A stretch of DNA of 64,000 bases from Candidatus Omnitrophota bacterium. GTDB taxonomy: Bacteria > Omnitrophota > Gorgyraeia > JAFGHF01. The DNA is taken from the NCBI GenBank assembly GCA_020341815.1, contig CP070837.1:1044575-1108574 (forward strand), in the 5' to 3' direction. This document shows positions 3,842-63,865 of this stretch, in pieces. Every line of letters starts with the position of its first letter. The stretch's first letter is position 1. The notes beneath the pieces were generated by a model. It had not been told where the DNA came from, ran no database searches, and was given only the letters and a program-made list of their open reading frames with translations. Made by a program: the position numbers and the translations under genes.

Positions 3842-3930
3842 ATTGCCTCAAAAAACTACAGTAAATCTTTAGCCTCCTAAAACATTTGCTAAGTTGTCAA
3901 ATTTCTTTAAAGATGTTATCGCTGGTGATA

Positions 3931-7435: not shown

Positions 7436-7609
7436 TCATTTTAATGAAAAGGGTTTATTCACGCCCAACATTTTTTTCCATATTTTATAAGCTTTTTTAT
7501 TAAAAGTATACTTTAAGTGGAAATTGACAAATTTCAAATAATCATCCATTGATAGCCATTTTGCATCAGGAATACCTTTTTTAATAATGGGTAAATTTAA
7601 TTTTTTCAT
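7436..7609 (-). CDS. small ORF (57 aa), possible partner of the adjacent nucleotidyltransferase
   Basis: Manually translated as MKKLNLPIIKKGIPDAKWLSMDDYLKFVNFHLKYTFNKKAYKIWKKMLGVNKPFSLK. Below the ORF-track cutoff. Lies in a stop-codon-rich AT-rich spacer. Weakly similar to the 61-aa ORF at 51826-52011. Confidence 0.3.
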   Translation of the reverse strand: MKKLNLPIIKKGIPDAKWLSMDDYLKFVNFHLKYTFNKKAYKIWKKMLGVNKPFSLK

Positions 7610-7619
7610 TCTGCAATCT

Positions 7620-8150
7620 TTATATGCTTTCTAATATCTCGTTGTAGATTTCTTTTGTTCCATATTTTAGACAAAGTTTCTGGAATTTTTTGCTTTTGAA
7701 ATCTACCTCATTAATTCTGATTAAATTAATGATATCCGGCAAATCTTTAATATTACGGACCTTAGGATTATATTTAATTGAATGGAGCTTGAGCGCAATT
7801 AAATTGTATAATGAAGGGACTGTGAACTTTTGTCCCGCTATATTAATTTCTTTTCCATCTTTAATGATCTCGAGTAAAGTTTCTTTGTCCACAAACATAA
7901 AATCTATATCCCATAGATTATATTTGCTACTTTTAAGCCGAGTAAATACTTTCTGGGTATAGTCTTGTTTATAGCCTGCCTCCTTCAATAAGCCCGCTAT
8001 TTTTTCAAAATCCTCTTTAGTAATCAAAAAATCAACGTCTGCAGTCTGCCGCGTGTATTTATAATAATTAACGGCAAATCCGCCAACTAAAATACAAGAG
8101 ACGCCTGCTTTTTTAGATATAGCTGAAATGAGATGAAAAACTGTAGTCAT
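7620..8150 (-). CDS. minimal nucleotidyltransferase-fold protein (DUF6036/AbiEii-like), AT-rich insert in the por operon
   Basis: N-terminal ILVGGFAVNYY ... ADVDFLI matches the hG[GS]...D.D NTase signature. Paralogous to ORF 51971-52417. Its start codon overlaps the porB stop (ATGA). Confidence 0.6.
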   Translation of the reverse strand: MTTVFHLISAISKKAGVSCILVGGFAVNYYKYTRQTADVDFLITKEDFEKIAGLLKEAGYKQDYTQKVFTRLKSSKYNLWDIDFMFVDKETLLEIIKDGKEINIAGQKFTVPSLYNLIALKLHSIKYNPKVRNIKDLPDIINLIRINEVDFKSKKFQKLCLKYGTKEIYNEILESI

Positions 8151-8875
8151 TTAAACTTCCCCAAAGGAAATGTCTTGGTCATCTCACTCCCCACCCATTG
8201 CCAGGCACCCTGAGGCGTCTTTTTCCAGCAGACAGGACAGGGAGAGAGTATCTCTACAAGCGAAAAACCTTTATTCTCAAGCTGATTTATAAAGGCCTCT
8301 TTCAGGGCCTTTTTGGTCTTGATTACCCCGCCTACAGAATCCAGGGCCACCCGCTCCAGGGACCTTACAGCCGGCAGAACAGCTAACAACTCACAAATCT
8401 TTAAAGGGTATCCCTCAAGGGCGGGATTTCGCCCCAGAGGAGTGGTAGTGGTCTTCTGCTTCAATAAGCTTGTCGGGGCCATCTGCCCACCGGTCATTCC
8501 GTAAATCGCGTTATTGATAAAAGCCACGCTTAAGTTTTCTCCGCGATTAGCCGCATGGATTGTCTCGGCAGTGCCGATAGCCGCTAAATCCCCGTCGCCC
8601 TGATAGGTAAAGACAAACCTATTCGGCTGCGTGCGCTTAATGCCCGTAGCCACTGCCAGGGCGCGGCCGTGAGCAGCCTCACAGCAGTCAAAGTTCCAGT
8701 AATCATAGGCCACTACCGCACAACCCACGGGACAGACGGCAATAGTCTTTTCCCTGATTCCCAGCTCATCAATCAGCTCACAAATCAGCCGATGTACTAT
8801 GCCGTGTCCGCAGCCTGCGCAATAATGCGTATCTACATCTCGCAATGATTCAGGACGGGTAAATATCTTTTCCAA
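8147..8875 (-). CDS. 2-oxoacid:ferredoxin oxidoreductase beta subunit (TPP-binding)
   Basis: CAGCGHG ... GDGD TPP-binding pattern typical of POR/KOR beta. Confidence 0.85.
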   Translation of the reverse strand: MEKIFTRPESLRDVDTHYCAGCGHGIVHRLICELIDELGIREKTIAVCPVGCAVVAYDYWNFDCCEAAHGRALAVATGIKRTQPNRFVFTYQGDGDLAAIGTAETIHAANRGENLSVAFINNAIYGMTGGQMAPTSLLKQKTTTTPLGRNPALEGYPLKICELLAVLPAVRSLERVALDSVGGVIKTKKALKEAFINQLENKGFSLVEILSPCPVCWKKTPQGAWQWVGSEMTKTFPLGKFK

Positions 8876-49389: not shown

Positions 49390-51822
49390 ATGTATACAAA
49401 AGGCGAAAAGATAGTACCCGTTTATATCGAAAATGAAATGAAGGATTCCTATGTTTCCTATGCCATGAGCGTAATCGTGGGACGGGCGCTTCCCGATGTG
49501 CGCGACGGCCTCAAGCCCGTGCACCGACGGATTCTTTATGCGATGAAAGAGCTGCACCTGGAGCACAGCAAGCCTTATAAGAAATGCGCGCGTATAGTTG
49601 GAGACACCCTTGGCCGTTTTCACCCGCATGGTGACACGGCGGTATTTGATGCCCTGGTGCGTATGGTTCAGGATTTTTCCTTAAGGTATCCTTTAGTTGA
49701 CGGTCAGGGGAATTTTGGCTCAATCGACGGGGATGCTGCGGCGGCTATGCGTTATGTTGAAGCACGCTTAAGCTCGATTACCGATTGGATGCTTAAAGAC
49801 CTGGAAAAAGAAACCGTCAACTTTGTGCCCAATTTCGACGAATCTATGACCGAGCCCTCGGTCCTGCCGGCGGTTTTGCCAAATCTTCTGGTAAACGGCT
49901 CAAGCGGCATAGCCGTGGGTATGGCTACCAATATCCCGCCGCATAATCTGGGTGAGATAATTGAGGGAGTTAAGCTGGTTATCGATGAGCCCGATTGCGA
50001 GATAAAAGAATTGATGCGCCTGATTAAAGGCCCGGACTTTCCCACCGGCGGATTTATCTGCGGGCGGGAAGGGATAAAGCATGCCTACACCTCAGGGCGC
50101 GGGCGGCTTAAGGTGCGCGCCAAGGCCAATATCGAACAGCAGAAAAGCGGCAAAGAGGCCATTGTAATTTCCGAGATACCCTACCAGGTAAATAAAACAA
50201 ACGTAATCAACTCTATCGCCAAGCTGGTGCAGGACAGAAAGATAGACGGCATCAGCGACTTAAGAGACGAGTCAGATAAAGACGGAATGCGTATTGTGGT
50301 AGAGCTGCGCCGGGGGGCAATAGCCCAGGTGGTGCTTAATCATTTATTTAAGCAGACCCAGATGGAAGAGACCTTTGGCGTAATTCTGCTTGCCCTGGTG
50401 GACAACCAGCCGCGCATTCTCAACCTGAAGCAACTGCTTGAGCTTTATATCGAGCATCGCAAAGAGATAATTATCCGCCGCACCACCTTTGACCTGCGCC
50501 GGGCGGAGGAACGGGCGCATATCTTAGAGGGTTTGAAGATTGCCCTTTCGCATCTGGATAAAGTTATTAAAACTATTAGAGAGTCCAAGACGCCCCAGAT
50601 TGCCAAAGAGCAATTGATGAAGAAGTTTTCTTTAAGTGAAAGACAGGCCCAGGCGATTCTGGAGATGCAGCTTCAGAGGCTGACCGCTCTTGAGCGCGAT
50701 AAAATCGACCAGGAATATCTGGAGCTGATTAAAAAGATTGAGCAGCTCAAAAGCATCTTGGCCAGCGAAAAAAAGGTCTTGGGGATTATCAAGGATGAGC
50801 TGGATGAGCTGAAGAAGAAATTCGGCGACGACAGAAGAACGCAGGTTGTGGGCGAGGCCGAGGATCTGGAAATAGAAGACTTGATTGCCGAGGAAGATGT
50901 TATTATTACCATTACTCATTCCGGCTATATAAAGCGCCTTCCGGTAAGCGCATACAAGCGGCAGCGCCGGGGCGGAAGAGGCGTAACCGCAATGGGGACG
51001 AAAGAGGAGGATTTTGCCGAGCATCTTTTCCTTGCCTCAACGCATGAATATATTCTTTTCTTCACTAATAAAGGAAAAGTCTATTGGCTAAAAGTGCATG
51101 AGATTCCTCAAGGAGGACGCCTTTCCAAGGGTAAGGCAATCGTCAATCTTCTGCAGGTGGAGTCGGGTGAGAAAATCTCCGCGCACGTCCCGGTAAAAGA
51201 GTTCGACCCCAAGAAATACCTTGTTTTGGTTACCAAACAGGGTTTGATTAAAAAGACCTGCCTGGATGCCTTCAGTAATCCGCGCCGCGCGGGTATCGTA
51301 GCTATTTCCCTTGAGTCCGGAGATGAATTGATTGCAGCCACCCTTACCGACGGAAAACACGAAGTCTTTCTGGCCAGCCGCCAGGGCAAGGCCCTGCGCT
51401 TTAAGGAAAGCGATGTGCGCGATATGGGTAGAACTGCCAAGGGCGTGCGGGCAATAAAATTGCGCAAGAACGATGAGGTAATCGGGATGGAAATCGTCAG
51501 GCCCGAGGCCACGCTGCTTACGGTAACCTCAGGCGGTTTTGGCAAGAGGACCCCGTTTAAGGACTACAGGCTGCAGTCCCGCGCCGGACAAGGAGTTATC
51601 AATATTAAAGTGACCAGTAAAAATGGCGAGGTCGTCGGCCTCAAATCCGTTAACGATAAAGATGAAGTAATGATTATCACTCAAAACGGGATGGTAGTGC
51701 GCTGTCCCGTCAAGGATATTCGCACCGTGGGCAGAAATACTCAAGGCGTGCGGATAATCCGCCTGGGGCAAAAAGATAAGGTTTCATCGATTGCCTCGGT
51801 AGTAAAGAAGGAAGAAGAATAG
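49390..51822 (+). CDS. gyrA: DNA gyrase subunit A
   Basis: Catalytic-Tyr region [12 protein letters not shown]-terminal beta-pinwheel repeats. 810 aa. Confidence 0.95.
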
Positions 51823-51825
51823 ATT

Positions 51826-52011
51826 ATGAAAGGAATTCTCAAATTAAACAAACACAATAAAGATAAAGAAATAGACTTTGAATTAAATTATCTTAAGTCA
51901 TTATCCTTTCAGCAGAGGCTGCAAATGTGTTTGCAAAAGTCTAAAGAAATGAAGGAGCTTTTAAAGAAAAGTGGGCACAGAAAGACTTTTGAAATTATTA
52001 AAAGGACATAA
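51826..52011 (+). CDS. small ORF (61 aa), putative partner of the downstream nucleotidyltransferase
   Basis: AT-rich. Overlaps the NTase start by 41 nt in another frame. Weak similarity to the 57-aa ORF at 7436-7609 (shared ...D/N-YLK-x-h-x-F segment). Confidence 0.3.
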   Translation: MKGILKLNKHNKDKEIDFELNYLKSLSFQQRLQMCLQKSKEMKELLKKSGHRKTFEIIKRT

Positions 52012-52417
52012 GGTAGATTTCGTAATTATCGGCGCTACCGCCTTTCCTCTCTACGGCTATGCGCGTGCTACATTGGATATAGATATTTTTATTCGCCCCG
52101 AGGAAAATAATGCCAAAAAGACCTGGCGGGCTTTAAGGAAATTCGGGTATGATTTAAGCGATGTAACTATAGAAGATTTAATGAGTAAAAAATTATTAAT
52201 TCGTCAATACAACGTAGAAACAGACATTCACCCTTTTGTAAAAGGCATCACTTTTAAAAGGGTATGGAAGAACAAACTGCGGGCAAAATTTGGCCATACC
52301 TTTGTATATTTCGCTGCGCTTGAGGATTTGATCAAGATGAAGAAGGCTGCGGCGCGGCCTCAGGATTTAGAAGATCTTAAATATTTAAACAGATTAGCCA
52401 AAAAACATAAAAGCTAA
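51971..52417 (+). CDS. minimal nucleotidyltransferase-fold protein, paralogue of ORF 7620-8150
   Basis: VDFVIIGATAFPLYGYARATLDIDIFI NTase signature. AT-rich. Ends 1 nt before tRNA-Glu. Confidence 0.6.
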   Translation: MGTERLLKLLKGHKVDFVIIGATAFPLYGYARATLDIDIFIRPEENNAKKTWRALRKFGYDLSDVTIEDLMSKKLLIRQYNVETDIHPFVKGITFKRVWKNKLRAKFGHTFVYFAALEDLIKMKKAAARPQDLEDLKYLNRLAKKHKS

Positions 52418-52418
52418 C

Positions 52419-52496
52419 GACCCCATCGTCTAGCCCGGCCTAGGACAAGAGCTTTTCAAGCTCTCGACACCGGTTCGAATCCGGTTGGGGTCGCCA
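52419..52496 (+). tRNA. tRNA-Glu (anticodon TTC)
   Basis: Acceptor GACCCCA/TGGGGTC, D-arm GTCT-AGCCCGGCCTA-GGAC, anticodon stem AGAGC/GCTCT with loop TTTTCAA, T-arm ACCGG-TTCGAAT-CCGGT, discriminator G, CCA. Confidence 0.85.
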
Positions 52497-52545
52497 TCAA
52501 TTCGGACACTCTTGTAACTTAAACAGTTATAAGAGGTTAAATAAA
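52482..52545. repeat. left direct repeat (putative attL) spanning the tRNA-Glu 3' end plus 49 bp
   Basis: 64 bp. Matches 63801-63865 with ~5 mismatches and 1 indel: cggttg(c)gggtcgccatc[a/g]attc[g/a]gacactcttgtaactta..cagttataagaggttaaataaa. Confidence 0.7.
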
Positions 52546-52710
52546 GTAAGGGGAGTTGAAGTACTTCAAAAAAGGAGTATTTTGGCTTCCTTTTTTATTT
52601 TATCTCAAAAGCATAGTTCAATTTTTGAATTCAGCTTTAAGCAAAGCATAATTCAAAATTTGAACTCTCATATATTAAATAAATAGATACTTAAATAGAA
52701 GACTTAAACT

Positions 52711-53190
52711 ATGAGAACCATTTACCCATTTGGCTGGATAGACAGAGACCTTAAAGAATTAGGATTTTTAAAGGAAATGTCTCCTACAGCGGCAAAGCTT
52801 TATATTCTTTATATCCTGGCCGGTGGCGCAAATGGCAGAAGCTGTTACAGCGCTAAGGCCTTAAACGAAGCAACCGGCCTGGCAAACGCCACAATATGCA
52901 AAGCAAGACAGGAGCTTCAAGATATGGGTCTTATTGCAGTAGAGAAGGAAATGATACCGGGTCGCAAGAACAAGAAGCCAAAGATATGGGTAGAGCTCCA
53001 GGATCTTCCGGTTGACAGGATGGAGGTTAAACAACGCAGAAACACCGCCCATAAAGAACTTACCACTAAGAGAATCAGGAAAAGGAGATCGGAATTCATT
53101 GAACAGCCGAGACTTCTTTGTGAAAGGCCATATATGGCTCCAGATTGGCTGAAACAAGGTGTAAAACGAGCAAGGAGGCCTTATGTTTAG
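52711..53190 (+). CDS. winged-helix DNA-binding protein (regulator or replication-initiator-like)
   Basis: Predicted HTH around SAKALNEATGLANATICKARQELQDMGLI. Basic C-terminal tail. Preceded by paired inverted-repeat sites. Confidence 0.5.
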   Translation: MRTIYPFGWIDRDLKELGFLKEMSPTAAKLYILYILAGGANGRSCYSAKALNEATGLANATICKARQELQDMGLIAVEKEMIPGRKNKKPKIWVELQDLPVDRMEVKQRRNTAHKELTTKRIRKRRSEFIEQPRLLCERPYMAPDWLKQGVKRARRPYV

Positions 53191-53407
53191 CCTGCGCCGC
53201 TGGCTCAAATATACCCTAAATCCCCCAGAATATATTTGGATAAAGGCCATTTTGCTCAAAGAAACCCGCAAAGCCATCTTAATTGAGTTCGATGGCAAGC
53301 AAATCTGGCTCCCGAAGGTCTGGATTTTACGTATCAAACGAATTCAATGCAACCCTACCATAAGCATCAAAATATCCCAGTATCACTGGGCCAAGAAGCT
53401 CGGGTAA
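53183..53407 (+). CDS. hypothetical small protein (74 aa)
   Basis: Overlaps the previous gene by 8 nt. No recognised motif. Confidence 0.35.
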   Translation: MFSLRRWLKYTLNPPEYIWIKAILLKETRKAILIEFDGKQIWLPKVWILRIKRIQCNPTISIKISQYHWAKKLG

Positions 53408-53541
53408 TTTCTGTATTCAGCCTCGTTTTTTTCATGTATTCCCCTTTACAACCCTCTCAAAAGCATTTATAATAGTAAGCCAACTAGACGCTAAATGCTA
53501 GCAAAAGGGCTTATTTTACCGGTCCAAGAAGTATTTAATAC

Positions 53542-53571
53542 TTGAAAACAGAGCTTTTTCAGGAGTATAAT
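53542..53571 (+). promoter_or_regulatory. sigma70-type promoter for the methyltransferase operon, with a 15-bp palindrome over the -35 box
   Basis: TTGAAA (53542-47), 17-bp spacer, TATAAT (53566-71). Palindrome aagtatttaatactt at 53529-53543. Confidence 0.5.
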
Positions 53572-53610
53572 ATATAGCTGTCGAATGTCTATATAAAGCT
53601 GGAGAAATGT

Positions 53611-54669
53611 ATGCCTTGCAATTTTAGCGTTATTGATTTATTTTCTGGATGTGGCGGACTGTCGTACGGCTTTGTTAGGTCGGGGTATAATGTCTTGCTG
53701 GGTATAGATAATGATCCGGTAGCCCTCAAAACTTTCAAGCTCAACCATTCCGGATCGGATACTATAATAGCTGATATTGCAGGCATTTCCGGACAGGATA
53801 TCCTGAAAGCTGTGGGCAGAAGACAAATAGACGTTGTTATAGGCGGACCGCCATGTCAGGGATTTTCGCTTTCTGGCCCCAGAAAATTTAGTGATCCCAG
53901 AAACAAATTATACCTTTCTTTTATAAGGCTGGTTAAAGAACTGAAGCCTAGGGCATTTCTGATTGAGAATGTTCCCGGCATTATGAGTCTCTACAAAGGA
54001 CAGATAAAAGACGAAATTATTGGCAGATTTTCGAAAATGGGTTATAAAGTGAGTTGCAGTAAGCTGAATTCGGCAGACTACGGCGTTCCCCAACTGAGAA
54101 ACAGGGTTTTTTTTGTGGGAATATATAAGGCGAAAGAGTACTTTAAGTTCCCCCCTCCAGTGTTAAATAAAGAATGTTATATTGTTGCCGAAGAAGCCAT
54201 CGGCGATCTGCCAGGTTTGGAGGATCGTATCGGCACAGATCCAGCCCCTTATCCCGGAAACGGCGAACTCACGAGATATCAGAAATATATGAGGCAAGGT
54301 TCTCAGTATATACATAATCATATCGGAACGCGCCATGCCGAAATGACAAAGCGCGTTATATCTCTCGTTCCGGAAGGATGTAATTATAAAAGTCTGCCGC
54401 CGGAATATGCCAATACCAGAAATTTTCATGTTGCATGGACAAGGTTCCACAGCAAAAAGCCGGCACCGACCGTTGACACTGGCCATAGACACCACTTCCA
54501 TTATTTATATGACAGGGTTCCTACTGTCAGAGAATGCGCAAGGCTGCAATCTTTTCCGGACATTTTTATTTTCATCGGAAATAAATCACAACAATATTCC
54601 CAGGCAGGAAATGCAGTTCCTCCATTCACGGCACAAGCTATTGCGGAAGAAATGAGGCATTATTTATGA
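53611..54669 (+). CDS. DNA (cytosine-5)-methyltransferase, copy 1
   Basis: Motif I DLFSGCGGLSYGF, motif IV GGPPCQGFS, motif VI ENVPG, motif VIII QLRNRVFFVG, motif X GNAVPPF. Confidence 0.9.
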   Translation: MPCNFSVIDLFSGCGGLSYGFVRSGYNVLLGIDNDPVALKTFKLNHSGSDTIIADIAGISGQDILKAVGRRQIDVVIGGPPCQGFSLSGPRKFSDPRNKLYLSFIRLVKELKPRAFLIENVPGIMSLYKGQIKDEIIGRFSKMGYKVSCSKLNSADYGVPQLRNRVFFVGIYKAKEYFKFPPPVLNKECYIVAEEAIGDLPGLEDRIGTDPAPYPGNGELTRYQKYMRQGSQYIHNHIGTRHAEMTKRVISLVPEGCNYKSLPPEYANTRNFHVAWTRFHSKKPAPTVDTGHRHHFHYLYDRVPTVRECARLQSFPDIFIFIGNKSQQYSQAGNAVPPFTAQAIAEEMRHYL

Positions 54670-56081
54670 GATACCAGATACCAGAAGAATATTATTGTAG
54701 GTTGCACCACATACGTCCGAGGTTTAAAAATAATATAGAAAATGTTCTTATTTATATGGCTACCGAGATATCTAAAATTCGAAGAAAGAGCAAAAGAGAA
54801 TTCGATAAAGAAGTTAATAAAGCAATTAAAAAATTCCCAGGGAATGCAACGAAAAAGATTAAGACAATCAACAATTGGCGCACAGAAATCTCCTCTCTGT
54901 TTGGTTTTATCCGCACCAGCAGATCAAAAGATAAGTCGTGGCCAGCACTGAGGGCGACAGAGCTGGCGGATAAACAGGATTTGGTGCATTCGTTCAAGCT
55001 TTTTCTGTACCATTTTCAGTATCCCGGAGGACATCTCAAGCCTCACGAAAATGCTGAAGTTATCAGGCAAGGTATCAAATTCAGACCGGCACCTTTTATT
55101 TTGAAATTACTGCATAGCGCTGAAAAAAATGAAAAGACCAGGAAAGGTATCACCAAGCCCGAGCTGACCCACTGTGTTTTCAATGACCTGAGAGTCACGC
55201 GTGACGGGGAAGGTCCGGAATCCGTATGGGAGCGCATTAAAGAAAACAGGAAGAAAAAGGTTCAATATGACTGCAGGGGGGATGTTATACGTTATGCCGG
55301 AGATATTCTCGACTATATGGTAACGGCTAACTTACTTACTCCCCACGGGCAGAAATATTTTATAAATACCCTGGAGAAAAACGCGGTGCAGAAATTTATG
55401 GAGTCAAAAGATTGGTTTAGCAAGTATGACCGTTATATAGATAAAAGAAATGTTACCTTAGCGCAGATAAATAGTCTTCAGGAAGCATGGTTTGAATATG
55501 TAAATATGCCCAGGGAAGAGATATTCGAAACGGATGCTTTGGCTTTTATCGCCAGAGACGAGACAGAATATGCGAAGTTGCGAAAACAGATCGTAAGCAG
55601 TTTTATGGAAAAGCTCGAAGAGCCTAGTGAAATTGGCACGAAGGAAATAGGGGATGTGGGCGAAAATCTTGTGCACGGGCACGAATGTATGAGGATTAAA
55701 TTGCGCGAGCGTACAGACTTAATACATCTTATTCGGTGCATACCGGATCATCTCGCTGCCGGTTACGATATCAGATCTGTCGAGGCAGATGCTACATACA
55801 GATATATAGAGGTTAAAACTACCATAAGCAACAGCGAAATTGATTTTACCAGAATTCATCTGACGCCTGTGGAATGGACTGCGGCAGACACTCTTAAAAG
55901 CAGATACTTTGTCTACAGACTGCTCTTAAGCAAGAGGTCAAGAAAATTATTTCTGCTTCGCGATCCGGTGGGCCAGTACAAACAAGAAAAACTATCAATG
56001 ACGCCGCGCAACGGGGCAGATATTGTTTTCAGCCCTGCAAGATGCGGTGAATATACGGAGCTTCTGGAGTGGAGAGATTAA
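54666..56081 (+). CDS. protein with C-terminal DUF3883 (restriction-endonuclease-like fold) domain and uncharacterised N-terminal region
   Basis: C-terminal GENLVHGHE ... GYDIRSVEADATYRYIEVKTT ... IHLTPVEWTAA ... YFVYRLL matches the DUF3883 pattern. ATGA-coupled to the upstream MTase and overlaps the downstream MTase. Confidence 0.6.
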   Translation: MRYQIPEEYYCRLHHIRPRFKNNIENVLIYMATEISKIRRKSKREFDKEVNKAIKKFPGNATKKIKTINNWRTEISSLFGFIRTSRSKDKSWPALRATELADKQDLVHSFKLFLYHFQYPGGHLKPHENAEVIRQGIKFRPAPFILKLLHSAEKNEKTRKGITKPELTHCVFNDLRVTRDGEGPESVWERIKENRKKKVQYDCRGDVIRYAGDILDYMVTANLLTPHGQKYFINTLEKNAVQKFMESKDWFSKYDRYIDKRNVTLAQINSLQEAWFEYVNMPREEIFETDALAFIARDETEYAKLRKQIVSSFMEKLEEPSEIGTKEIGDVGENLVHGHECMRIKLRERTDLIHLIRCIPDHLAAGYDIRSVEADATYRYIEVKTTISNSEIDFTRIHLTPVEWTAADTLKSRYFVYRLLLSKRSRKLFLLRDPVGQYKQEKLSMTPRNGADIVFSPARCGEYTELLEWRD

Positions 56082-57484
56082 GAATAGCTTCGCTTTTCTG
56101 TGGTTGCGGCGGCACGGACGCGGGAATGCTCGGGGGGTTTACTTTCCTCGGCAGTAAATATGAAAAGCATCCTGTACAAATCGTTTACGCGAACGACATA
56201 GATGCCTCCGCAGCCAGAATATACGATGCAAATTTTAAACACAAATGCCTGGTGAAAGATATCCGGAAGATAAAAGCAGCAGAAATACCGGATCATGACA
56301 TATTGGCCGGCGGATTTCCCTGCCAGTCGTTTTCCATAGTTGCGCAGAATCCGCCTCGTCTGGGATATAGAGATGAAAACGGCCGGTTATTCTTTGAAAT
56401 GTGTAGGATTTTGCGTAATAAAAAACCGTTAGCCTTTGTTGCCGAAAACGTCAAAGGTATTTTATCGGCAAACAATAAACATGCTTTTCCTCTTATAATA
56501 AAAGAGTTTGAAAAATGTGGATACATAGTTTCCTGGTGTCTCCTGAACGCGGCTAATTATGGCATTCCGCAGCGAAGGGAACGTGTTTTTATTGTCGGAA
56601 TAAGAAAAAATATAGGCAGGAAGTTTTATCCTCCGGATTCTACCCACAGGCCGGAAAGCGATCTCTTGGCCGAAAGAAAATGGGTATCATTAAAAAGAGT
56701 TGTCTTTCCGCATGCCAAGGTGCCGAAGAAATATTTTTTTTCCGACAGGGCGCATAAGGGTCTTCATAATTCCAATCCCGCAATGAATAAAGGCCGGGCG
56801 CAGGATCCCGAGAAAGTTTGTAATACTGTGGGAGCGCACCTTGCTAAAGTCAGCCTTAACAGCACGGATCCCGTTTTAAAGATAAATGGTCGTTTCAGGC
56901 GCTTCGCGCCCAGAGAAGTGGCCAGAATTCAGTCTTTCCCTGATACTTTCAGGCTGCCGGGACCGGACACGGCTAAATACAAGGCTCTGGGGAACGCAAT
57001 TCCGCCGGTGTTGATGTGGCATATGACAGAAAGACTGCTCGAGATATTGGTTAAAGGTCCGGCCGAAGATGCAAGGACCGGCCGGGAAAAAAGAAGCTAT
57101 AATATGGCGCGAATTTGTTCAAAAAACACATTAATAGAACGTATTCTTGATGAAGCATTAAAGTCCTTAGGCTTGGAATATAAAAGAAATGTCAAAGGGC
57201 TTCCCGGAAAACCAGATATAGTTTTTGAGAAAAATCGTCTGGCGGTTTTCTGTGACAGCACGTTTTGGCACGGCAGACATTATCCCGAATGCGTAGAACG
57301 GATTAACACAAATAAAAGTTTCTGGAAAAACAAGATATTGAGAAACATGGAACGAGATAAAAAGACAACCAAAGAATTAAGATATCTAGGCTGGAAAGTG
57401 CTTCGTTTTTGGGATACCGATATAGAGAACAGAATGCAAGCCGTGATAGGAAAAATAGAAAAAATATTGGGTGCCCAGAAATGA
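56069..57484 (+). CDS. DNA (cytosine-5)-methyltransferase, copy 2, fused to a C-terminal Vsr-like very-short-patch-repair endonuclease domain
   Basis: MTase motifs FCGCGGTDAGM, GGFPCQSFS, ENVKG, QRRERVFIVG, GNAIPPV. C-terminal ~130 aa PDIVFEKNRLAVFCDSTFWHGRHYPE ... FW.NK ... RD ... LGWKVLRFWDTD matches the Vsr signature. Confidence 0.8.
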   Translation: MERLRIASLFCGCGGTDAGMLGGFTFLGSKYEKHPVQIVYANDIDASAARIYDANFKHKCLVKDIRKIKAAEIPDHDILAGGFPCQSFSIVAQNPPRLGYRDENGRLFFEMCRILRNKKPLAFVAENVKGILSANNKHAFPLIIKEFEKCGYIVSWCLLNAANYGIPQRRERVFIVGIRKNIGRKFYPPDSTHRPESDLLAERKWVSLKRVVFPHAKVPKKYFFSDRAHKGLHNSNPAMNKGRAQDPEKVCNTVGAHLAKVSLNSTDPVLKINGRFRRFAPREVARIQSFPDTFRLPGPDTAKYKALGNAIPPVLMWHMTERLLEILVKGPAEDARTGREKRSYNMARICSKNTLIERILDEALKSLGLEYKRNVKGLPGKPDIVFEKNRLAVFCDSTFWHGRHYPECVERINTNKSFWKNKILRNMERDKKTTKELRYLGWKVLRFWDTDIENRMQAVIGKIEKILGAQK

Positions 57485-57999
57485 TATATGAAAGCCGCAC
57501 ACTAGGAGAGTCGCCATTTGATTTTGATATTAGCTGGCCCTTTCCGGAAGGACAGAGAAAGTTGCTTGAAGCAGCCGTAACTAAAATAAAAATAGAATCA
57601 GCATCCCAAATTGATAAATTTGAAGAATCTTTCAATGAGGAGATTGCGCAGCATGGTTATATGTGGGACAAGAAAGATAAAAGCACATGTTCTCTCTGGC
57701 GGCCCGATTTCAGAATGTCTGTTGATTTCTATAACGCAAAGGAAAAAATTGCAGTTGAAATTGAAAAGACAGAGGTTAAAAGAATTATCCACGACGTATT
57801 AAAGCTAGTGAACGGCTCCTTAACCTTTGTGCCCAAAGTGAGATATGGAGTAATTATTCATCCGCACACATATAAACGCACATCAGGTAAAGAGAGTGTA
57901 TTTGCATCACGGGTTGTAAGCGAAGTTTCCTTCTATTTCAGGCGTTTGATCGGAAACACCTTATTAAATGATGTTCTTTTTATAGTTTATAATTTTTGA
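57481..57999 (+). CDS. hypothetical protein (172 aa), candidate PD-(D/E)xK nuclease
   Basis: Likely start MIYESRTLGE is ATGA-coupled to the MTase-Vsr stop. RPDFRMSVDF ... IAVEIEKTEVK is weakly PD-ExK-like. Confidence 0.4.
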   Translation: MIYESRTLGESPFDFDISWPFPEGQRKLLEAAVTKIKIESASQIDKFEESFNEEIAQHGYMWDKKDKSTCSLWRPDFRMSVDFYNAKEKIAVEIEKTEVKRIIHDVLKLVNGSLTFVPKVRYGVIIHPHTYKRTSGKESVFASRVVSEVSFYFRRLIGNTLLNDVLFIVYNF

Positions 58000-58148
58000 G
58001 CTGGTTTAAGGTTTTTCTTCGTCGGTAGAGTTTTCATGTTTCTTTGACTCGAATTCCCCGATAGAAAAGTGTTATGTTCCCAGAATTGCTGCACTTTATC
58101 TAGACGGCAAGAGGAAAACTTGGTTGTATAGGAATAAAGGCAAATATC

Positions 58149-58436
58149 TTGATTGGACGCGATTTTGGAATAACTTCTCGTTTTTTAATTAGAGGATTGA
58201 ATATAAAGAAGCTCCTGGCTCTGGCAATTCTAATCTGCCTAATATCCCTAACTGTTTTTGGCCAAGAAAAGAATTACCAAATGAAAACAGGCATATTAAA
58301 GACTTATGGAGAACCATTTTGGAAAGGCGAAGGCAAGCAGCGAGAAGTTTGGTATTACCCACGCCAAAGAATGTTTATTTATTTTGAAGGAGATAGAGCT
58401 ATTGAGATTGATGTAATTGCAGGGGAGAAGACATAA
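58149..58436 (+). CDS. small exported or lipoprotein-like hypothetical protein
   Basis: Hydrophobic N-terminus LLALAILICLISLTVFG. 95 aa. Confidence 0.4.
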   Translation: MIGRDFGITSRFLIRGLNIKKLLALAILICLISLTVFGQEKNYQMKTGILKTYGEPFWKGEGKQREVWYYPRQRMFIYFEGDRAIEIDVIAGEKT

Positions 58437-58439
58437 CGA

Positions 58440-59099
58440 ATGGAAATAATAAAACAAACATATTGTGCGGTTTTAAATAGCTTAAACCAAAATGCTAAAG
58501 ATAACTTTGATTATTTTTGTTCTGAAATTCAAAGAGTTGCAAACGAATATGGGATAGCGAATAAAGTCACTAAACTTGAACTTATCTGCAAAGGGAACCT
58601 TTATCGAAATATAGCAATAAGCTCCGGAAGAGTAAATATAAAAAATAATAATGATAAAACCTACAACTTCTGGGCTTCCTGTTCATTGTTTGTTACTAGG
58701 AAAGAAAGAATTACTGCAATAGTGCAACATGAATTGATGCATATTAAAGATATGGAGGATAAAGAATTTAAATTTGATAAAGAACTGTGGGACGGGTTGC
58801 TTGAAGACAAAATAATAGCCACATCGATTAGGCATATTTGGGACATCTATATAGATTCACGGATTGCGAGAACGAGTAAAATTGGTATTTCTAAACAAGA
58901 TAGGCTCGATGGGATCCTGCGTCTCGCTTTAAATAAGAATTTTCAATTAAGACATTGCATTTGGGAAATTGAAGATGATTTTGATTATCTTTGGAATATT
59001 GAGAAAATAGATTTTCCGACTATCATTGATAAAGCTAAAGAATTAAAAGAGAAAGTAGCGAATAAAGGTATGGCCCACCCGTCCGAAGAAACTTTATGA
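58440..59099 (+). CDS. HExxH-motif putative metallopeptidase
   Basis: HELMH motif (IVQHELMHIKD). 219 aa. AT-rich. Confidence 0.45.
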   Translation: MEIIKQTYCAVLNSLNQNAKDNFDYFCSEIQRVANEYGIANKVTKLELICKGNLYRNIAISSGRVNIKNNNDKTYNFWASCSLFVTRKERITAIVQHELMHIKDMEDKEFKFDKELWDGLLEDKIIATSIRHIWDIYIDSRIARTSKIGISKQDRLDGILRLALNKNFQLRHCIWEIEDDFDYLWNIEKIDFPTIIDKAKELKEKVANKGMAHPSEETL

Positions 59100-59328
59100 A
59101 ACTCAACGCTAAAGTAAAGATCTGGATGATCTTAGCCCCTTTGTGATAATGGCGACAATAGCCACAAAGGCTTTTTGCTATCCAGCAGAGGTTGAGGATA
59201 TGAGCGGAGAAAAATGCGTAGGATAATCTTTCGCCATAGTGGCCAAAAAATGCTATCCCTATGCAAAGGGGATAATGGATAAATAGCAGTTATTCTCATT
59301 TTTATAAAGTTTATGGAGTAAAAGGAAG

Positions 59329-59889
59329 ATGATTGACAGAAGTTTTGTTGATTATTGGAGCGAAAGATACGATAAGAATGCTCTGAAGAGAGATAAAAAG
59401 CTAGAGAAGAGAATTAGAGGAAAACTAAAGAAACTTTTTCCCGATGGGAAGGTAAAATACATTTTGAAAGACACGTTATTCGACATCGTTAACTGGAAAG
59501 CTCCGAGAAAGAAAAAATTAGCCAAAGATAATAAAAAAGAATATGTCTTTGAATTAACCAAGGCAAATTTTAAGGGGCATAGAGAACAGCTAAAGATAGA
59601 GGGACTAACATTACTGAAGGGTGTTGAGTATCGGGTTGCGAGTGCAATTCTTCATTTCTGTTTTCCCAAAAAATATACCGTAATGGACTATCGGACTTGG
59701 GAGTGTTTACAGAAAGAAAAAGAACTTCCTAAGGATTGCAACATTAAAGATGATTTTGAGCATTGGCAGAAATATTTAAAAATCTGTAGAAAAATAGCCA
59801 AAAGATGTAATGTCCCATTAAGAAAACTTGATAAGGCACTCTGGCAATACCATAAGGAATTGGAATGTAAAAAGAAGCTCAGGAAATGA
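59329..59889 (+). CDS. hypothetical protein (186 aa, Lys-rich)
   Basis: ORF with a plausible SD (aaaaggaag 8 nt before the ATG). No recognised domain. Confidence 0.4.
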   Translation: MIDRSFVDYWSERYDKNALKRDKKLEKRIRGKLKKLFPDGKVKYILKDTLFDIVNWKAPRKKKLAKDNKKEYVFELTKANFKGHREQLKIEGLTLLKGVEYRVASAILHFCFPKKYTVMDYRTWECLQKEKELPKDCNIKDDFEHWQKYLKICRKIAKRCNVPLRKLDKALWQYHKELECKKKLRK

Positions 59890-59963
59890 TAGCAGGGAGA
59901 AAAAATAAATCCGCCCCCCTGCTTTTTACTATTTCTATAACTTATTGAAGATAGTCCATACTA

Positions 59964-61130
59964 TCATTCTGGCCAAGCACTTAATTTCTGGTTGCCATGG
60001 AAAGAAAATAACTGAACATGACCACAATAGCCGCAGGTAAAGATTTTCATTGAATGAGTTCCAACGTATTTGAAGCCAAACTGCATCATGTCATTTGGGT
60101 CGCGATCAGCAATTAGTTTGTATTTACCAATCCCGCAAACTCTACATAATCGTTCAATATCGGGATCAAGCCGATCAGCACCCTCATCAATAATAGATAA
60201 GGTATTATCCACTTCTGCGAGAAGTTCGGAGGCATCCCTAAGGCAGTTTTTTTCATCTTCTACTATACATTTTTTAAGAAGTGAATTAGCCAATCGCATT
60301 AAACGACTGCTTGGGAACTTCTTTTCTAGATTAAAGTCCGGTCTATCAAAATACCAGAGAGGAAGAATAGGTGTGTCTGAAACCATTGCCCATAAGACCT
60401 TCCCCAAACAAAATACATCAAATGATGGTTTTACATCTTCTATCCGCATCCCTATTGCCCAACCGGGCATCCAATCCCGACTTCCTACATTCTCCCAGGT
60501 GCCAGAGATTCTGGTATGTCTTTGGTCTGTAAAGAATATCAGCCCAAAATCTCCAAGAATTAAATTATCGCTGGAATCAAGAAAAATATTTTGAGGCTTA
60601 ATATCTCTATGTACATTATTTTTTTCATGTAATTTGGCAATACCTTCCACAAGTGGCCTAAATGCTCTAAGGGCTTTAGCAAAATCACCGGTAAATTTAT
60701 TTAAATGTTTAGCCATCGTTTCTTTTGGGTAAAATTGAGACACAAACCATTTTGAATCTGGATCAGCATCTATAATTTTTAAAAGATTGGGATGTGAAAT
60801 GTTAGACATCGCTTTAATTTCACGCTCAATTCTTTTTTCGGCTAATCCGGCATTTCTTGCGTCTTGGGGACTATGCAATACTTTTAAAGCGCCGTGGTTT
60901 GAAGGATCTTCCATTTTAACAAGATGGACTATAGCATCCTTGAATAATTCAAATTGATTCTTCTTGATATCTTCTATTGCAACCACAGGCCCCATATATT
61001 TAACTGCTTTTTCAATGTTTGTCCGAATTTTGGTTATATTAAATTTATCGTTATCAATAACGCGATAAACCTTTCCTTGCCCGCCCTCTCCTTTATGCTC
61101 AATAATACGCCATCGGTTTGAATATTCCAT
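59964..61130 (-). CDS. eukaryotic-like Ser/Thr protein kinase with C-terminal zinc-ribbon
   Basis: Gly loop GEGGQGKVYRV, catalytic loop HRDIKPQNIFLD, DFG, C-terminal CRVCG ... CGYCGH. Confidence 0.85.
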   Translation of the reverse strand: MEYSNRWRIIEHKGEGGQGKVYRVIDNDKFNITKIRTNIEKAVKYMGPVVAIEDIKKNQFELFKDAIVHLVKMEDPSNHGALKVLHSPQDARNAGLAEKRIEREIKAMSNISHPNLLKIIDADPDSKWFVSQFYPKETMAKHLNKFTGDFAKALRAFRPLVEGIAKLHEKNNVHRDIKPQNIFLDSSDNLILGDFGLIFFTDQRHTRISGTWENVGSRDWMPGWAIGMRIEDVKPSFDVFCLGKVLWAMVSDTPILPLWYFDRPDFNLEKKFPSSRLMRLANSLLKKCIVEDEKNCLRDASELLAEVDNTLSIIDEGADRLDPDIERLCRVCGIGKYKLIADRDPNDMMQFGFKYVGTHSMKIFTCGYCGHVQLFSFHGNQKLSAWPE

Positions 61131-61282
61131 TTAAGACCTCCTGCTTTAGGTTTCTAGGCTTCTTCTGCCTTTCTTGAGGTTTGAGAAGCAGTTATTTTAC
61201 AACTTCCGTTACTAATTATAATCCTTAAAACAATGGATCTCAAGCAAAATCTGCCCAGAGAGAAAATTTTTTAAAATTTCTC

Positions 61283-61311
61283 TTGACAGATGCCCAAGCA
61301 TATGCTATTAT
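61283..61311 (+). promoter_or_regulatory. sigma70 promoter (TTGACA-17-TATTAT) with a palindromic operator in the spacer, driving a leaderless HTH gene
   Basis: -35 TTGACA at 61283-88, spacer gatgcccaagcatatgc, -10 TATTAT at 61306-11. The ATG at 61319 is ~7 nt downstream of the -10. The ORF-track start at 61283 is the TTG of the -35 box. Confidence 0.55.
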
Positions 61312-61318
61312 TAAAACG

Positions 61319-61498
61319 ATGACAGAAAAGGAGATTCTTGCAAAGATAGAAGATTACATGAGGAAGAATAATCTCCGGCAGTACGAATTGGCAAAAAAGT
61401 TAGGCGTTCCAGAGTCGACACTTAATAGGTGGCTTAAAGAGAAAACAAATATCTCAAATGCCTACCTGGCCATTTTAAAAAGAGAAGGGATTATTTAA
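61319..61498 (+). CDS. small HTH (XRE/cI-like) transcriptional regulator, probably leaderless
   Basis: HTH LRQYELAKKLGVPESTLNRWL. Start revised from the track's TTG to the ATG at 61319. Confidence 0.6.
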   Translation: MTEKEILAKIEDYMRKNNLRQYELAKKLGVPESTLNRWLKEKTNISNAYLAILKREGII

Positions 61499-61631
61499 AA
61501 AATTTTTAAGGAAAATATTAGCATATGCCAAAGCAAGCGTTAATAGAAAAGAGAGCAAAGCAAGGCAAAGAAATTTTTTTGCCCAATAAATTAGCATATG
61601 CCAAAGCAAATAAAGGAAAGGAGAGAGAGCT

Positions 61632-61838
61632 ATGTCAGAGCTGGCAAGGAAGATAGGGGATAATATCCGCCATTATCGCACGGAGAAGAAGCTGACGCAG
61701 GCGCAACTGGCCAAGAAGGCCAAGTTGAGCCGCGGTTATATCTGCAGAATTGAGCATGGCAGGGTTAATATGTATTTAACGACTCTTTTTGAACTTGCCA
61801 AGGTCCTTGGGGTTAGCTGCCGGGATCTGGTTAAATAA
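61632..61838 (+). CDS. XRE-family HTH transcriptional regulator
   Basis: LTQAQLAKKAKLSRGYICRIEHG HTH. Strong SD aggaaaggagag. Two copies of attagcatatgccaaagcaa upstream. Confidence 0.8.
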   Translation: MSELARKIGDNIRHYRTEKKLTQAQLAKKAKLSRGYICRIEHGRVNMYLTTLFELAKVLGVSCRDLVK

Positions 61839-61853
61839 AAAGGAGAGCCTGAT

Positions 61854-61988
61854 ATGGAGAGCAAAGAGAAGCCGGTCGCGGGAGAAAGGATTAATCAGTT
61901 TATTATCGAGTGCTTATTTAATAAGTACTTCGAGGAGCAGAAGGATAAAGAAGTAGTCGTCAAGAAGGAAGAAGTCGCAGCCCAATGA
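61854..61988 (+). CDS. 44-aa acidic small ORF translationally coupled to the serine recombinase (possible recombination directionality factor)
   Basis: Manually translated as MESKEKPVAGERINQFIIECLFNKYFEEQKDKEVVVKKEEVAAQ. SD aaaggagag. TGA overlaps the recombinase ATG (ATGA). Confidence 0.35.
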   Translation: MESKEKPVAGERINQFIIECLFNKYFEEQKDKEVVVKKEEVAAQ

Positions 61989-63622
61989 AACAGGCAATTG
62001 CCTATTTAAGAAAATCAACAGACTTACAAGAAGCCTCTTTGGAGCAGCAGAGGGAGAAAATCCTCCTGTTTGCAGAAGAGCATTCTATTAAAGTGATTGA
62101 GTTCTTTGCCGAGGAGGCCTGCGGCGAGAATGTCGAAGGCCGGCCGCAATTCCGCAGGATGATAGATTGCTGTAAAGGACAGGATAACTTTCAATACGTG
62201 TTTGTATATGATATCTCCCGATGGGGCAGATTTGAGAATCCGAAGGAAGCTGTATATTGGGAAGTAGAAATAGAGAAGGCAGGCAAAAAGCTTGTTTTTG
62301 TTTCGGAAGGTTTTAAGGAAGACAATATAGGCACCTCAATTACAAATTTTGTAAAGAGCGCAGAGGCCTCAGAATATCTAAAGAATATCCGGCGGCAGAC
62401 GACAAGGGGCATGATTTACAACGCAAAGCAGGGCTTTTGGATGGGCGGCAGGCCTCCTTATGGATATGACCGGGCTATTGTTGAAAACGGAAAGATAATC
62501 GGGGTTTTGCCGCAAGGGAAGCAGAAGGGCATAAAAGATCAGAAAATAAAGCTTGTTATAAATAAGCAGCAGGCCAAGGTGATAAGGATAATATATATCA
62601 TGTTTGCGAAGCAAGGCCTGTCGGTGCGCTCTATAGCTACTTACTTAAATCAAAGCCGATATTCTCCTCCAAGGGGCCGGATGTGGACAAAATCAGCCCT
62701 CTGGCGGATGTTACATAATGAGGTTTATATCGGGATGTTAGTGTATAACCGGGAAAATAAACACAAGAGGCACGGCAGACATAAATATAACCCTAAAGAC
62801 AAATGGATAATTGTAGAGAATGCCCACCAGCCGATAATTCCTCTGGAGCTTTGGGAAATGGCCCAGGCAAGGACAAATCAGGCCTTTGCAGGCGGAAGGT
62901 TTGTGTCCAGAGGAAACAGGCCGCGGAGCAATTATCTTTTATCAGGACTTATAAAATGCGGGAAATGCGGCTCTAACTTTCATGGCAGCCGCTATCATAG
63001 AAAACATTCCATAACCAGAGTATATTGCTGCGGCGGTTATAATATGTATGGTAACAATGTCTGCGCCAGATGGGAAGTGAATGCCGGTGAGCTCGAAGAC
63101 TTTGTCTTAAAATATATACAGGGCAAAATAGATAATCCTATATGGCGCAAGGAGTTAAGACAGGAACTCTTGAAGATGGTTAAAATTGCAGAAGGCAAAT
63201 CAGGCGGCAGGCTGCACGAGCTTGACAAAGAAATCAAAGAAGTGTCTCTAAAGATAGAGAACTGGAAAAGAGCCATTGAAAAAGGCGTAGAATTGGATAA
63301 TGCCGTCAGTATTATCAATAAATATGTATTTCAGAGGCAGCAATTATATCAGGAAAAGGGCAGGCTGTCGGCAAAAGTGCATAACGGCAGCGCCGATAAG
63401 GCCGTAGAGAAGATGCTGTCTTATCTGGACGACTTCAAAGACATATTGAGCTATGGCGAGCCGGAAAGGAAAAAGGACTTTATCAGGCTGTTTGTTAAGG
63501 GTGTTATGATGAATCCTGAGACGAGAGAAGCCAAAATAACCCTTTACAGGCGGCCGAAATCTGGTATAATATTAGGACCTGAAAAGTGCGAGTTGACAGA
63601 AGAAATAGTCTATCAGAATTGA
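61985..63622 (+). CDS. large serine recombinase (integrase)
   Basis: N-terminal resolvase catalytic domain AIAYLRKSTDLQ (Ser nucleophile). Recombinase domain. C-terminal zinc-ribbon CGKCG ... CCGG ... C and coiled coil. Confidence 0.85.
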   Translation: MKQAIAYLRKSTDLQEASLEQQREKILLFAEEHSIKVIEFFAEEACGENVEGRPQFRRMIDCCKGQDNFQYVFVYDISRWGRFENPKEAVYWEVEIEKAGKKLVFVSEGFKEDNIGTSITNFVKSAEASEYLKNIRRQTTRGMIYNAKQGFWMGGRPPYGYDRAIVENGKIIGVLPQGKQKGIKDQKIKLVINKQQAKVIRIIYIMFAKQGLSVRSIATYLNQSRYSPPRGRMWTKSALWRMLHNEVYIGMLVYNRENKHKRHGRHKYNPKDKWIIVENAHQPIIPLELWEMAQARTNQAFAGGRFVSRGNRPRSNYLLSGLIKCGKCGSNFHGSRYHRKHSITRVYCCGGYNMYGNNVCARWEVNAGELEDFVLKYIQGKIDNPIWRKELRQELLKMVKIAEGKSGGRLHELDKEIKEVSLKIENWKRAIEKGVELDNAVSIINKYVFQRQQLYQEKGRLSAKVHNGSADKAVEKMLSYLDDFKDILSYGEPERKKDFIRLFVKGVMMNPETREAKITLYRRPKSGIILGPEKCELTEEIVYQN

Positions 63623-63756
63623 AAGAGACCCCTTGGGGTCGCCAGATTATATACTTCTTTAGTTCCCAACCGGAACAAAAGAGGGGTTTGGGGAGAAAAA
63701 AGTGTTTTTTCTCCCCAAGGGCAACTTCTTCTTTGCGTAAGGAAAGAAAAATATTA

Positions 63757-63790
63757 AAAAGAAAACCATCAGGGTTTTCTTTTTAAGGAG
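63757..63790 (+). terminator. rho-independent terminator after the recombinase region
   Basis: gaaaacc-atca-gggttttc hairpin followed by ttttt. Preceded by a 12-bp-stem hairpin ggggagaaaaaa/ttttttctcccc at about 63698-63724. Confidence 0.5.
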
Positions 63791-63800
63791 CGAAGCGACC

Positions 63801-63865
63801 CGGTTGCGGGTCGCCATCGATTCAGACACTCTTGTAACTTACGCAGTTATAAGAGGTTAAATAAA
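63801..63865. repeat. right direct repeat (putative attR) containing a degenerate tRNA-Glu 3'-end remnant
   Basis: Matches 52482-52545. The upstream gcgacccggttgcgggtcgcca looks like a deletion derivative of the tRNA T-arm/acceptor end. Confidence 0.7.

Follow-up and report, generated by a model that had tools for sequence, protein, structure and literature searches.

A 64,000-nt stretch of the genome of a Candidatus Omnitrophota bacterium (contig CP070837.1, positions 1,044,575 to 1,108,574 of the forward strand), referred to as the window in the following, contains between gyrA and a tRNA-Glu gene two overlapping genes, one specifying a protein of 61 amino acids (aa) and the other a nucleotidyltransferase (NTase) of 148 aa. 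The pair is an inserted cassette, it is kept together in all 18 close NTase loci examined, and the segment shared by the two genes codes for both proteins. Judging from sequence, structural models and analogy, a probability of about 0.55 is assigned to the interpretation that the cassette is a toxin-antitoxin module similar to MenAT1 and that the small protein represents a new antitoxin family. This interpretation is based on the obligate pairing of the genes amid unrelated neighbours, the accessory status of the cassette, a fold match to the toxin MenT1, motifs parallel to those of MenT1, full-length homology to an NTase of the AbiEii/NTP_transf_5 type, and an architecture matching that of MenAT1, in which a helical antitoxin is encoded upstream of the NTase.

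According to this proposal, the downstream gene would specify a minimal NTase of the polymerase beta (Pol-beta) fold that, like MenT and AbiEii, arrests growth; the most plausible activity of such a toxin is the addition of nucleotides to the 3' ends of RNA or tRNA. The small two-helix protein would bind and neutralise the NTase in the way known for MenA1 and MenT1. It would block the active site and might also induce auto-phosphorylation of a conserved threonine located two residues ahead of the first catalytic aspartate (T34-x-D36). The out-of-frame overlap of the genes could tie translation of the NTase to that of the small open reading frame (ORF) and keep the neutraliser in excess.

Conservation of the gene pair and its overlap

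An initial annotation, made from the window sequence alone, had listed both ORFs and an overlap at the NTase start. They are present as listed, with 41 nt in common (Table 1), the reading frame of the NTase being shifted by +1 against that of the small ORF. In the NCBI record of the 1.55-Mb contig from the source metagenome-assembled genome they are already separate genes, designated 'hypothetical protein JSV30_05870' and 'nucleotidyltransferase'. To these were added NTase loci fetched independently, giving 18 close loci, three long contigs among them. At least five phyla are represented, the source genomes belonging to Sedimentisphaerales, Pirellulales, Ignavibacteria, Cloacimonadota, Omnitrophota and other groups. 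An ORF homologous to the small one, 59-64 aa in length, is located upstream of the NTase gene in all 18. The overlap is always out of frame, 13 loci having one of 41 nt and five one of 47 nt, and each NTase gene has its own start codon, ATG in 11 cases and GTG in seven.

In the part outside the overlap, mean pairwise differences of the small ORF at codon positions 1, 2 and 3 are 0.35, 0.18 and 0.54, a coding pattern by which the small ORF is recognised as a true gene. A word search retrieved only four homologues (60-61 aa, 59-70% identity). Three of them were looked up and all are situated upstream of a DUF6036 NTase gene, with a 41-nt overlap and on contigs with differing neighbours. By profile search (HMMER), 267 representative clusters were obtained at E ≤ 0.001, and among the 150 matches listed, most end at the C-terminus of the protein or a few residues from it (profile position 60-61).

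The conserved dual-coding overlap of 41-47 nt is the most unusual feature of the cassette. In the window, it encodes the C-terminal tail of the small protein, SGHRKTFEIIKRT, and in the +1 frame the N-terminal helix of the NTase, MGTERLLKLLKGHK. Synonymous differences in the NTase gene are 0.273 in the overlap and 0.539 elsewhere, with none of 110 other segments reaching so low a value; the corresponding values for the small ORF are 0.256 (tail) and 0.545 (body). From this reduction of synonymous variation by half in either frame it follows that the segment is under selection for both proteins and encodes both, and that a sequencing frameshift is not the explanation.

The initial annotation had raised the possibility that the region is in fact one frameshifted gene. 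Such a gene could be interrupted by a sequencing frameshift or be read by programmed +1 frameshifting, which would yield a fusion of about 196 aa. The out-of-frame arrangement, an A-rich sequence just upstream of the NTase start (AAAGAAAA or GGAAAAAA) and a few fusions in the databases (P0278, P0237) could be taken as indications of this. However, the split is repeated with a separate ATG or GTG start in 18 of 18 independent assemblies, and no slippery sequence is conserved in the 44 nt within which the shift would be needed. From the length of the best 120 NTase homologues (142-171 aa) and the start of the Pfam model at residue 12 it follows that no N-terminal domain is missing, and most of the listed matches to the small ORF end with the protein, as mentioned above. 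Further frameshifts or deletions give the rare fusions a degenerate appearance. With two ORFs in every one of the 18 loci and selection on both frames of the overlap, the single-gene explanation was rejected as extremely improbable.

Properties of the nucleotidyltransferase

The 148-aa protein scores above the Pfam cut-offs for DUF6036 (PF19502; 33.7 bits, cut-off 23.6) and DUF2204 (PF09970; 31.1 bits, cut-off 20.3), in agreement with its initial designation as an NTase. Its match to NTP_transf_5 is below the Pfam threshold. More than 3500 homologues, counted as clusters at 90% identity, were found, and the best 120 are 70-81% identical to the query. Comparison of 37 homologues revealed the invariant residues G21-A22-T23, R32, D36, D38, E83, D85, K124, R129, D132, and D135, while T34 is nearly invariant. 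The Pol-beta signature is present in these sequences as IIG21-A22-T23, in which G-A replaces G-[GS], D36-I-D38, and E83-T-D85. The order of motifs, R32-A-T34-L-D36-I-D38 followed by K124...R129..D132..D135, aligns with the motifs of an AbiEii-type NTase encoded elsewhere in the window (7620-8150). Judged by its pattern, R-x-T-x-D-h-D followed by K...R..D..D is the motif arrangement of MenT and AbiEii. Key residues of MenT1 are T39, the site of auto-phosphorylation, D41, K137, and D152 (PMC10435456, PMC11375011). The median net charge of the NTase family is +10.

A structural model of the NTase obtained with AlphaFold2 (AF2) consists of alternating helices and strands, with a predicted local distance difference test (pLDDT) value of 82. 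In fold searches it matched MenT1 (8an5_B, TMq 0.61), LnuA (4fo1_A, TMq 0.57) and TM1012 (TMq 0.54-0.57), with probabilities of about 1.0 and E values of about 0.02-0.04 (0.027 for MenT1). At the level of sequence, the single protein gave no match to solved structures, and the family profile gave among PDB sequences only a weak NTase match, to TM1012 with E 0.7.

LnuA (4FO1) and TM1012 (2EWR) belong to the best fold matches and are similar in size to the 148-aa protein (156-158 aa), but the sequences are only 17-21% identical to it, and neither is known to have an obligatory small partner gene. An antibiotic resistance enzyme of the LnuA/ANT(2'') type, controlled by an upstream leader peptide through translation attenuation, would nevertheless be consistent with LnuA as the top fold match, with a weak match to Aminoglyc_resit (E 0.021), and with an upstream ORF that overlaps the start codon, which is the layout of attenuation leaders. 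This explanation is considered very unlikely. The Aminoglyc_resit match remains below threshold (15.4 bits, cut-off 21), and NCBIfam contained no match for the 148-aa protein and hence no resistance family. The upstream ORF, in contrast to short leaders, is conserved over its full 61 aa and specifies a folded two-helix protein. An attenuator structure that is conserved was not seen, no search aimed at it having been made. The hosts, moreover, are uncultured anaerobes from sediment and groundwater.

Properties of the small protein and comparison to MenAT1 and AbiE

For the small protein, AF2 predicted two helices, formed by residues 12-25 and 28-49, and an extended tail at either terminus (pLDDT 85). 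The protein is net basic, with a family median net charge of +4, its N-terminal half being acidic and its C-terminal half basic. No known family was matched by the 61-aa protein in Pfam, where 16 members were searched, or in NCBIfam, PADLOC, and PHROG; the family was previously unnamed.

The closest known arrangement is MenAT1 (Rv0078B-Rv0078A) of Mycobacterium tuberculosis (PDB 8AN5), in which the gene for a small NTase toxin with a single domain is likewise directly preceded by that for a short helical protein. MenA1, the antitoxin, is a helical protein of 68 aa without a DNA-binding domain and consists of two helices and a disordered tail (PMC10435456). Judging from the sequence pattern, both NTases have an active-site Thr-x-Asp as well as downstream Lys and Asp motifs. 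The systems differ in the size of the NTase, the solved chain of MenT1 comprising 184 aa versus 148 aa here, and in its family, which is DUF6036/DUF2204 here and not DUF1814/AbiEii. In addition, no solved antitoxin chain, MenA1 included, was among the matches of the small protein in sequence (E up to 10) or fold searches.

AbiE (AbiEi-AbiEii) and the COG5340-DUF1814 systems MenAT3 and MenAT4 are also bicistronic with a Pol-beta NTase downstream, and their motif layout is similar (hG-x, S/T-x-D-h-D, K...R..D..D). Their antitoxins, however, have a winged-helix fold, a length of about 200-300 aa and a role in transcriptional autoregulation, and their toxins comprise about 240-300 aa, whereas the partner described here has 61 aa and no recognisable DNA-binding fold.

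Occurrence of the cassette as an insertion

The location between gyrA and tRNA-Glu given initially was confirmed: the cassette starts 3 nt past the gyrA stop codon and ends 1 nt ahead of the tRNA gene. Using the C-terminal 199 residues of GyrA, the closest gyrA relatives were identified in loci L019 and L020 (79% and 65% GyrA identity). Both contain gyrA, tRNA-Glu(UUC) and glmS in this order without a cassette, the spacer from the gyrA stop to the tRNA being 4 nt and 94 nt, respectively. As this site is empty in both relatives, the cassette is an insertion. It has a guanine-plus-cytosine (GC) content of 0.354, compared to 0.499 in gyrA and 0.448 in the whole window, which bears out the AT-richness seen initially, and in 11 of 12 other loci the GC content of the cassette is also below that of the flanks.

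Cassette neighbourhoods are unrelated between loci. In L108, the cassette lies among DDE transposase genes and insertion sequence (IS) elements, and in L109 beside a pair of ribbon-helix-helix (RHH) and PIN genes resembling VapBC. NTase relatives at about 30% identity are present on plasmids. The empty sites and unrelated neighbourhoods place the cassette in accessory DNA of the mobile type, as had been suspected. The junction sequences of the cassette, as far as they were read, showed neither flanking repeats nor a gene for a recombinase. Phage carriage was not detected by tblastn against 50,697 phage records or by a pattern scan of IMG/VR, and fold matches in BFVD were weak and uncharacterised.

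The argument from a tRNA integration hotspot, by contrast, does not apply to the cassette. The tRNA-Glu gene is the integration site of a different element, an island 3' of the tRNA with its own attachment (att) repeats, whereas the cassette is located 5' of the tRNA; it ends at 52417, outside the repeats, and is therefore not cargo of the island. A conserved link between cassette and tRNA was considered and discarded. Among 17 other loci, the fetched flanks contain a tRNA gene in two, L014 (170 nt upstream of the small ORF) and L007 (about 2.5 kb away), so that a tRNA gene at a distance of up to about 200 nt is confined to the window and L014.

Decayed copies, alternative partners and polarity

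Several loci contain an NTase gene that is disrupted next to an intact small ORF. In L014 (2977-3430) the NTase gene is frameshifted and in L015 (3001-3283) it is internally deleted, and NTase deletions or frameshifts with an intact small ORF were also detected in the cluster representatives P0205, P0210, P0183, P0289, P0278, and P0237. In some degenerate copies, the small ORF is fused in frame to a remnant of the NTase. The reverse, loss of the small ORF with retention of the NTase, was not found among the loci examined.

More distant DUF6036 NTases are also tightly coupled to small genes, but their partners are unrelated to the 61-aa family and the NTases are only 25-34% identical. The partner is encoded downstream with a 4-nt overlap or upstream with a gap of 12-16 nt (Table 1). 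In Bacteriovoracaceae, a DUF6036 NTase gene (31% identity) is followed, with a 4-nt overlap, by a gene for a protein of the CopG_antitoxin family (PF12441; 35.1 bits, cut-off 28). From this coupling it appears that the NTase family swaps partners, as toxins do. Partner swapping and the direction of decay support both the toxin-antitoxin interpretation and its polarity.

With regard to polarity, the opposite arrangement is known from type VII HEPN-MNT (HepT-MntA) systems, in which minimal NTases such as MntA are the antitoxins. These systems resemble the cassette in being compact, mobile two-gene modules with a minimal NTase of about 100-150 aa, but there the partner is a HEPN RNase toxin. If the polarity were reversed here as well, the NTase would nucleotidylate a toxic small protein, and the basic, helical character of the 61-aa protein, reminiscent of some small toxins, would be in line with this. 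Yet none of 16 members of the small-protein family matched a HEPN domain, the protein being a two-helix polypeptide of 61 aa, and the aromatic residue at position 22 varies between Y, F and W, so that there is no fixed tyrosine acceptor at this position. The upstream position is usually that of the antitoxin. Disrupted NTase genes beside intact small ORFs would be lethal if the small ORF encoded the toxin; judging from the pattern of decay, it is the NTase that is harmful and can be dispensed with. Reversed polarity is therefore quite improbable.

Another explanation does without toxicity altogether. The two proteins could form an enzyme composed of a benign NTase, engaged in RNA or tRNA 3'-end repair or in nucleotidylation of small molecules, and the small basic helical protein, which would be an obligatory subunit for specificity or RNA binding and not an inhibitor. 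In favour of this, both proteins are basic, the NTase is very highly conserved across phyla, purifying selection acts on both proteins including the overlap, and the small protein resembles no known antitoxin. On the other hand, the patchy, insertion-type distribution in varied neighbourhoods is that of selfish cassettes and not of housekeeping enzymes, decayed copies retain the small ORF without a functional NTase, and one of the distant DUF6036 NTases has a CopG antitoxin as its partner. The two-subunit enzyme is regarded as unlikely, though more probable than the other alternatives.

Signals for expression

A purine-rich stretch resembling a Shine-Dalgarno sequence precedes the small ORF within the last gyrA codons, and its duplex with the anti-Shine-Dalgarno sequence has a calculated energy of -5.7 kcal/mol. 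Averaged over the 18 loci, the energies are -4.8 kcal/mol for starts of the small ORF and -3.4 kcal/mol for NTase starts. In six of the 17 other loci, a GGAG-containing stretch is present within 18 nt upstream of the NTase start, in five of them 5 nt from it, and the statement is therefore restricted to a Shine-Dalgarno signal that is weaker on average for the NTase. The stronger signal of the small ORF and the long overlap suggest that NTase translation is subordinate to that of the small ORF.

The overlap might moreover be a functional device rather than mere compaction. It could hard-wire co-evolution of the two interaction surfaces, and it could also fix a low toxin to antitoxin ratio if ribosomes terminate 41 nt past the toxin start and then reinitiate. 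In MenT1, the hydrophobic pockets for antitoxin binding are formed in part by residues A3, V4, and L8 of the N-terminal helix. This idea is put forward tentatively and is more likely wrong than right.

Scanning the + strand upstream of the small ORF did not reveal a sigma-70-like site, and overall counts of such sites equalled those expected from shuffled sequences. The lack of a sigma-70-like promoter at this position suggests that the cassette is transcribed together with gyrA. In L109 and L110 (each at about 3800-3855), where the cassette stands alone, sequences resembling sigma-70 promoters were seen by eye directly upstream of the small ORF, TTGACA ... TATGAT and TTGACC ... TATATT, respectively; the copy in the window, which abuts gyrA, has none. 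For tRNA-Glu, too, no promoter-like site was found on the + strand between 51300 and 52419. The tRNA gene starts 1 nt past the NTase stop codon (52415-52419), and in L019 (1175-1182) it starts 4 nt past the gyrA stop codon. If gyrA, cassette and tRNA were co-transcribed, cleavage by RNase P would leave an upstream mRNA ending essentially at the stop codon. A search for RNA elements in 51500-53000 returned nothing above threshold except the tRNA.

Points against the toxin-antitoxin interpretation

Several observations weigh against a toxin-antitoxin module. The 148-aa NTase is below the AbiEii/DUF1814 threshold of Pfam (PF08843; 13.2 bits versus 22.5, E 0.084, residues 12-67 only), and the AbiEii model of PADLOC gave no more than 13.5 bits (E 0.0079). 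In view of this failure and of the unnamed partner family, the cassette is classified as a putative variant of the NTase toxin-antitoxin modules and not as a member of MenAT or AbiE. The fold search has no power to separate MenT1 from LnuA or TM1012 (TMq 0.54-0.61); because the latter two score equally well, likeness to the fold of MenT1 does not discriminate. Equivalence of the motifs to those of MenT1 was deduced from the sequence pattern and not from a structural alignment at the level of residues. For a toxin, the NTase is strongly conserved, with 70-80% identity between phyla. The small protein has a basic and not an acidic net charge, and no relative of it was detectable among solved structures, by PDB sequence profile or fold search, or among known antitoxins. 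Some of the apparent decay may be due to errors in metagenome assembly. Finally, a literature search for DUF6036, DUF2204, PF19502, and PF09970 returned nothing relevant and no functional data.

A second nucleotidyltransferase locus in the window

The window contains another NTase gene accompanied by a small ORF, both on the complementary strand (Table 1), and the initial annotation had regarded the cassette as a second, paralogous copy of this module. Comparison of the two does not sustain this view. The NTases are only distant homologues, with 33% identity over 46 residues by BLASTP and, when the families were compared by hhalign, 29% identity over 124 columns (probability 81%, E 1.3e-5), and their best Pfam families differ, DUF6036/DUF2204 for the 148-aa protein and NTP_transf_5/AbiEii for the other. 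The small ORFs are unrelated. BLASTP between the 61-aa and 57-aa ORFs yielded nothing, hhalign of their families gave a probability of 0.3%, and in cross-searches of the window with the family models neither detected the other ORF. The D/N-YLK-x-h-x-F segment said to be shared by them comprises four identities in eight residues, a value reached in 4871 of 5000 shuffles and thus expected by chance, and within the 61-aa family two positions of the motif, K24 and F29, lack conservation. It is correct that the 57-aa ORF is located downstream of its NTase gene, but with distant NTases and unrelated small ORFs, the swapped order that was deduced from this compares two different systems.

The 57-aa ORF is a conserved gene in its own right with 56 homologues. 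In L102-L104, members of its family follow the gene for a 179-aa NTase, which they overlap by 4 nt; in L105-L107 they occur alone after a glutaminyl/glutamyl-tRNA synthetase gene. In the window, the module lies between ORFs 8147-8875 and 6792-7328, which by eye resemble genes for subunits of a 2-oxoacid:ferredoxin oxidoreductase, and the start of its NTase gene overlaps the stop codon of the upstream gene by 4 nt.

Other features near the cassette

The island 3' of tRNA-Glu contains, among others, genes for a large serine integrase and a Dcm-type methyltransferase (Table 1). In L019 and L020, glmS directly follows the tRNA, which means that the island is absent there.

Table 1. Positions of the features described in the window and of DUF6036 gene pairs in other loci
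Feature	Position	Strand	Remarks
Small ORF (ATG start, 61 aa)	51826..52011	+	proposed antitoxin/partner
NTase ORF (GTG start, 148 aa), DUF6036/DUF2204	51971..52417	+	proposed toxin
Overlap of small ORF and NTase, 41 nt	51971..52011	+	dual-coding
Inserted cassette, 596 bp, full extent	51823..52418	+	by comparison with relatives L019 and L020
Purine-rich Shine-Dalgarno-like stretch	51807..51819	+	within last gyrA codons, ahead of small ORF
gyrA, 810 aa	49390..51822	+	upstream neighbour, context only
tRNA-Glu (UUC)	52419..52496	+	downstream neighbour, context only
Island, about 11.3 kb, 3' of tRNA-Glu	52488-63865		bounded by 58-nt direct repeat, 93% identical
Island direct repeats	52488-52545 and 63808-63865		left copy begins in last 9 nt of tRNA
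Replication-initiator-like helix-turn-helix protein	52711-53190		in island
Dcm-type C5 methyltransferase	53611-54669		in island
471-aa ORF without assigned function	54666-56081		in island
Second 471-aa ORF, C5-methyltransferase-like by eye	56069-57484		in island
Kinase-like ORF	59964-61130	-	in island
Large serine integrase	61985-63622		PHROG 95, E 8e-96
Other NTase, 176 aa, NTP_transf_5/AbiEii-type	7620-8150	-	AbiEii 32.9 bits
57-aa ORF, downstream of other NTase	7436-7609	-	
Distant DUF6036 NTase and downstream CopG_antitoxin protein	L016 2753-3471; L017 176-876		Bacteriovoracaceae
Distant DUF6036 NTase and downstream 57-aa ORF	L018 2953-3635		Endomicrobiia
DUF6036 fusion protein (about 635 aa) preceded by an acidic 75-aa ORF	L100, L101 1245-3393		Spirosoma, Fibrella plasmids

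Significance of the gene pair

Uncultured anaerobic bacteria contain NTases of the DUF6036/DUF2204 families in abundance, and no function has been assigned to these proteins. One large clade of them is always paired with the 61-residue family, and the pair behaves as an insertable cassette. As one more putative toxin-antitoxin module, it would come as a moderate surprise to specialists. If the interpretation is true, NTase toxins are not limited to DUF1814. The small size of the pair makes it directly accessible to biochemistry and structure determination. Should the overlap act as the device considered above, the pair would represent a new and very widespread class of minimal NTase toxins (more than 3500 sequence clusters), whose antitoxins form a new fold family and whose translation is controlled in an unusual way.

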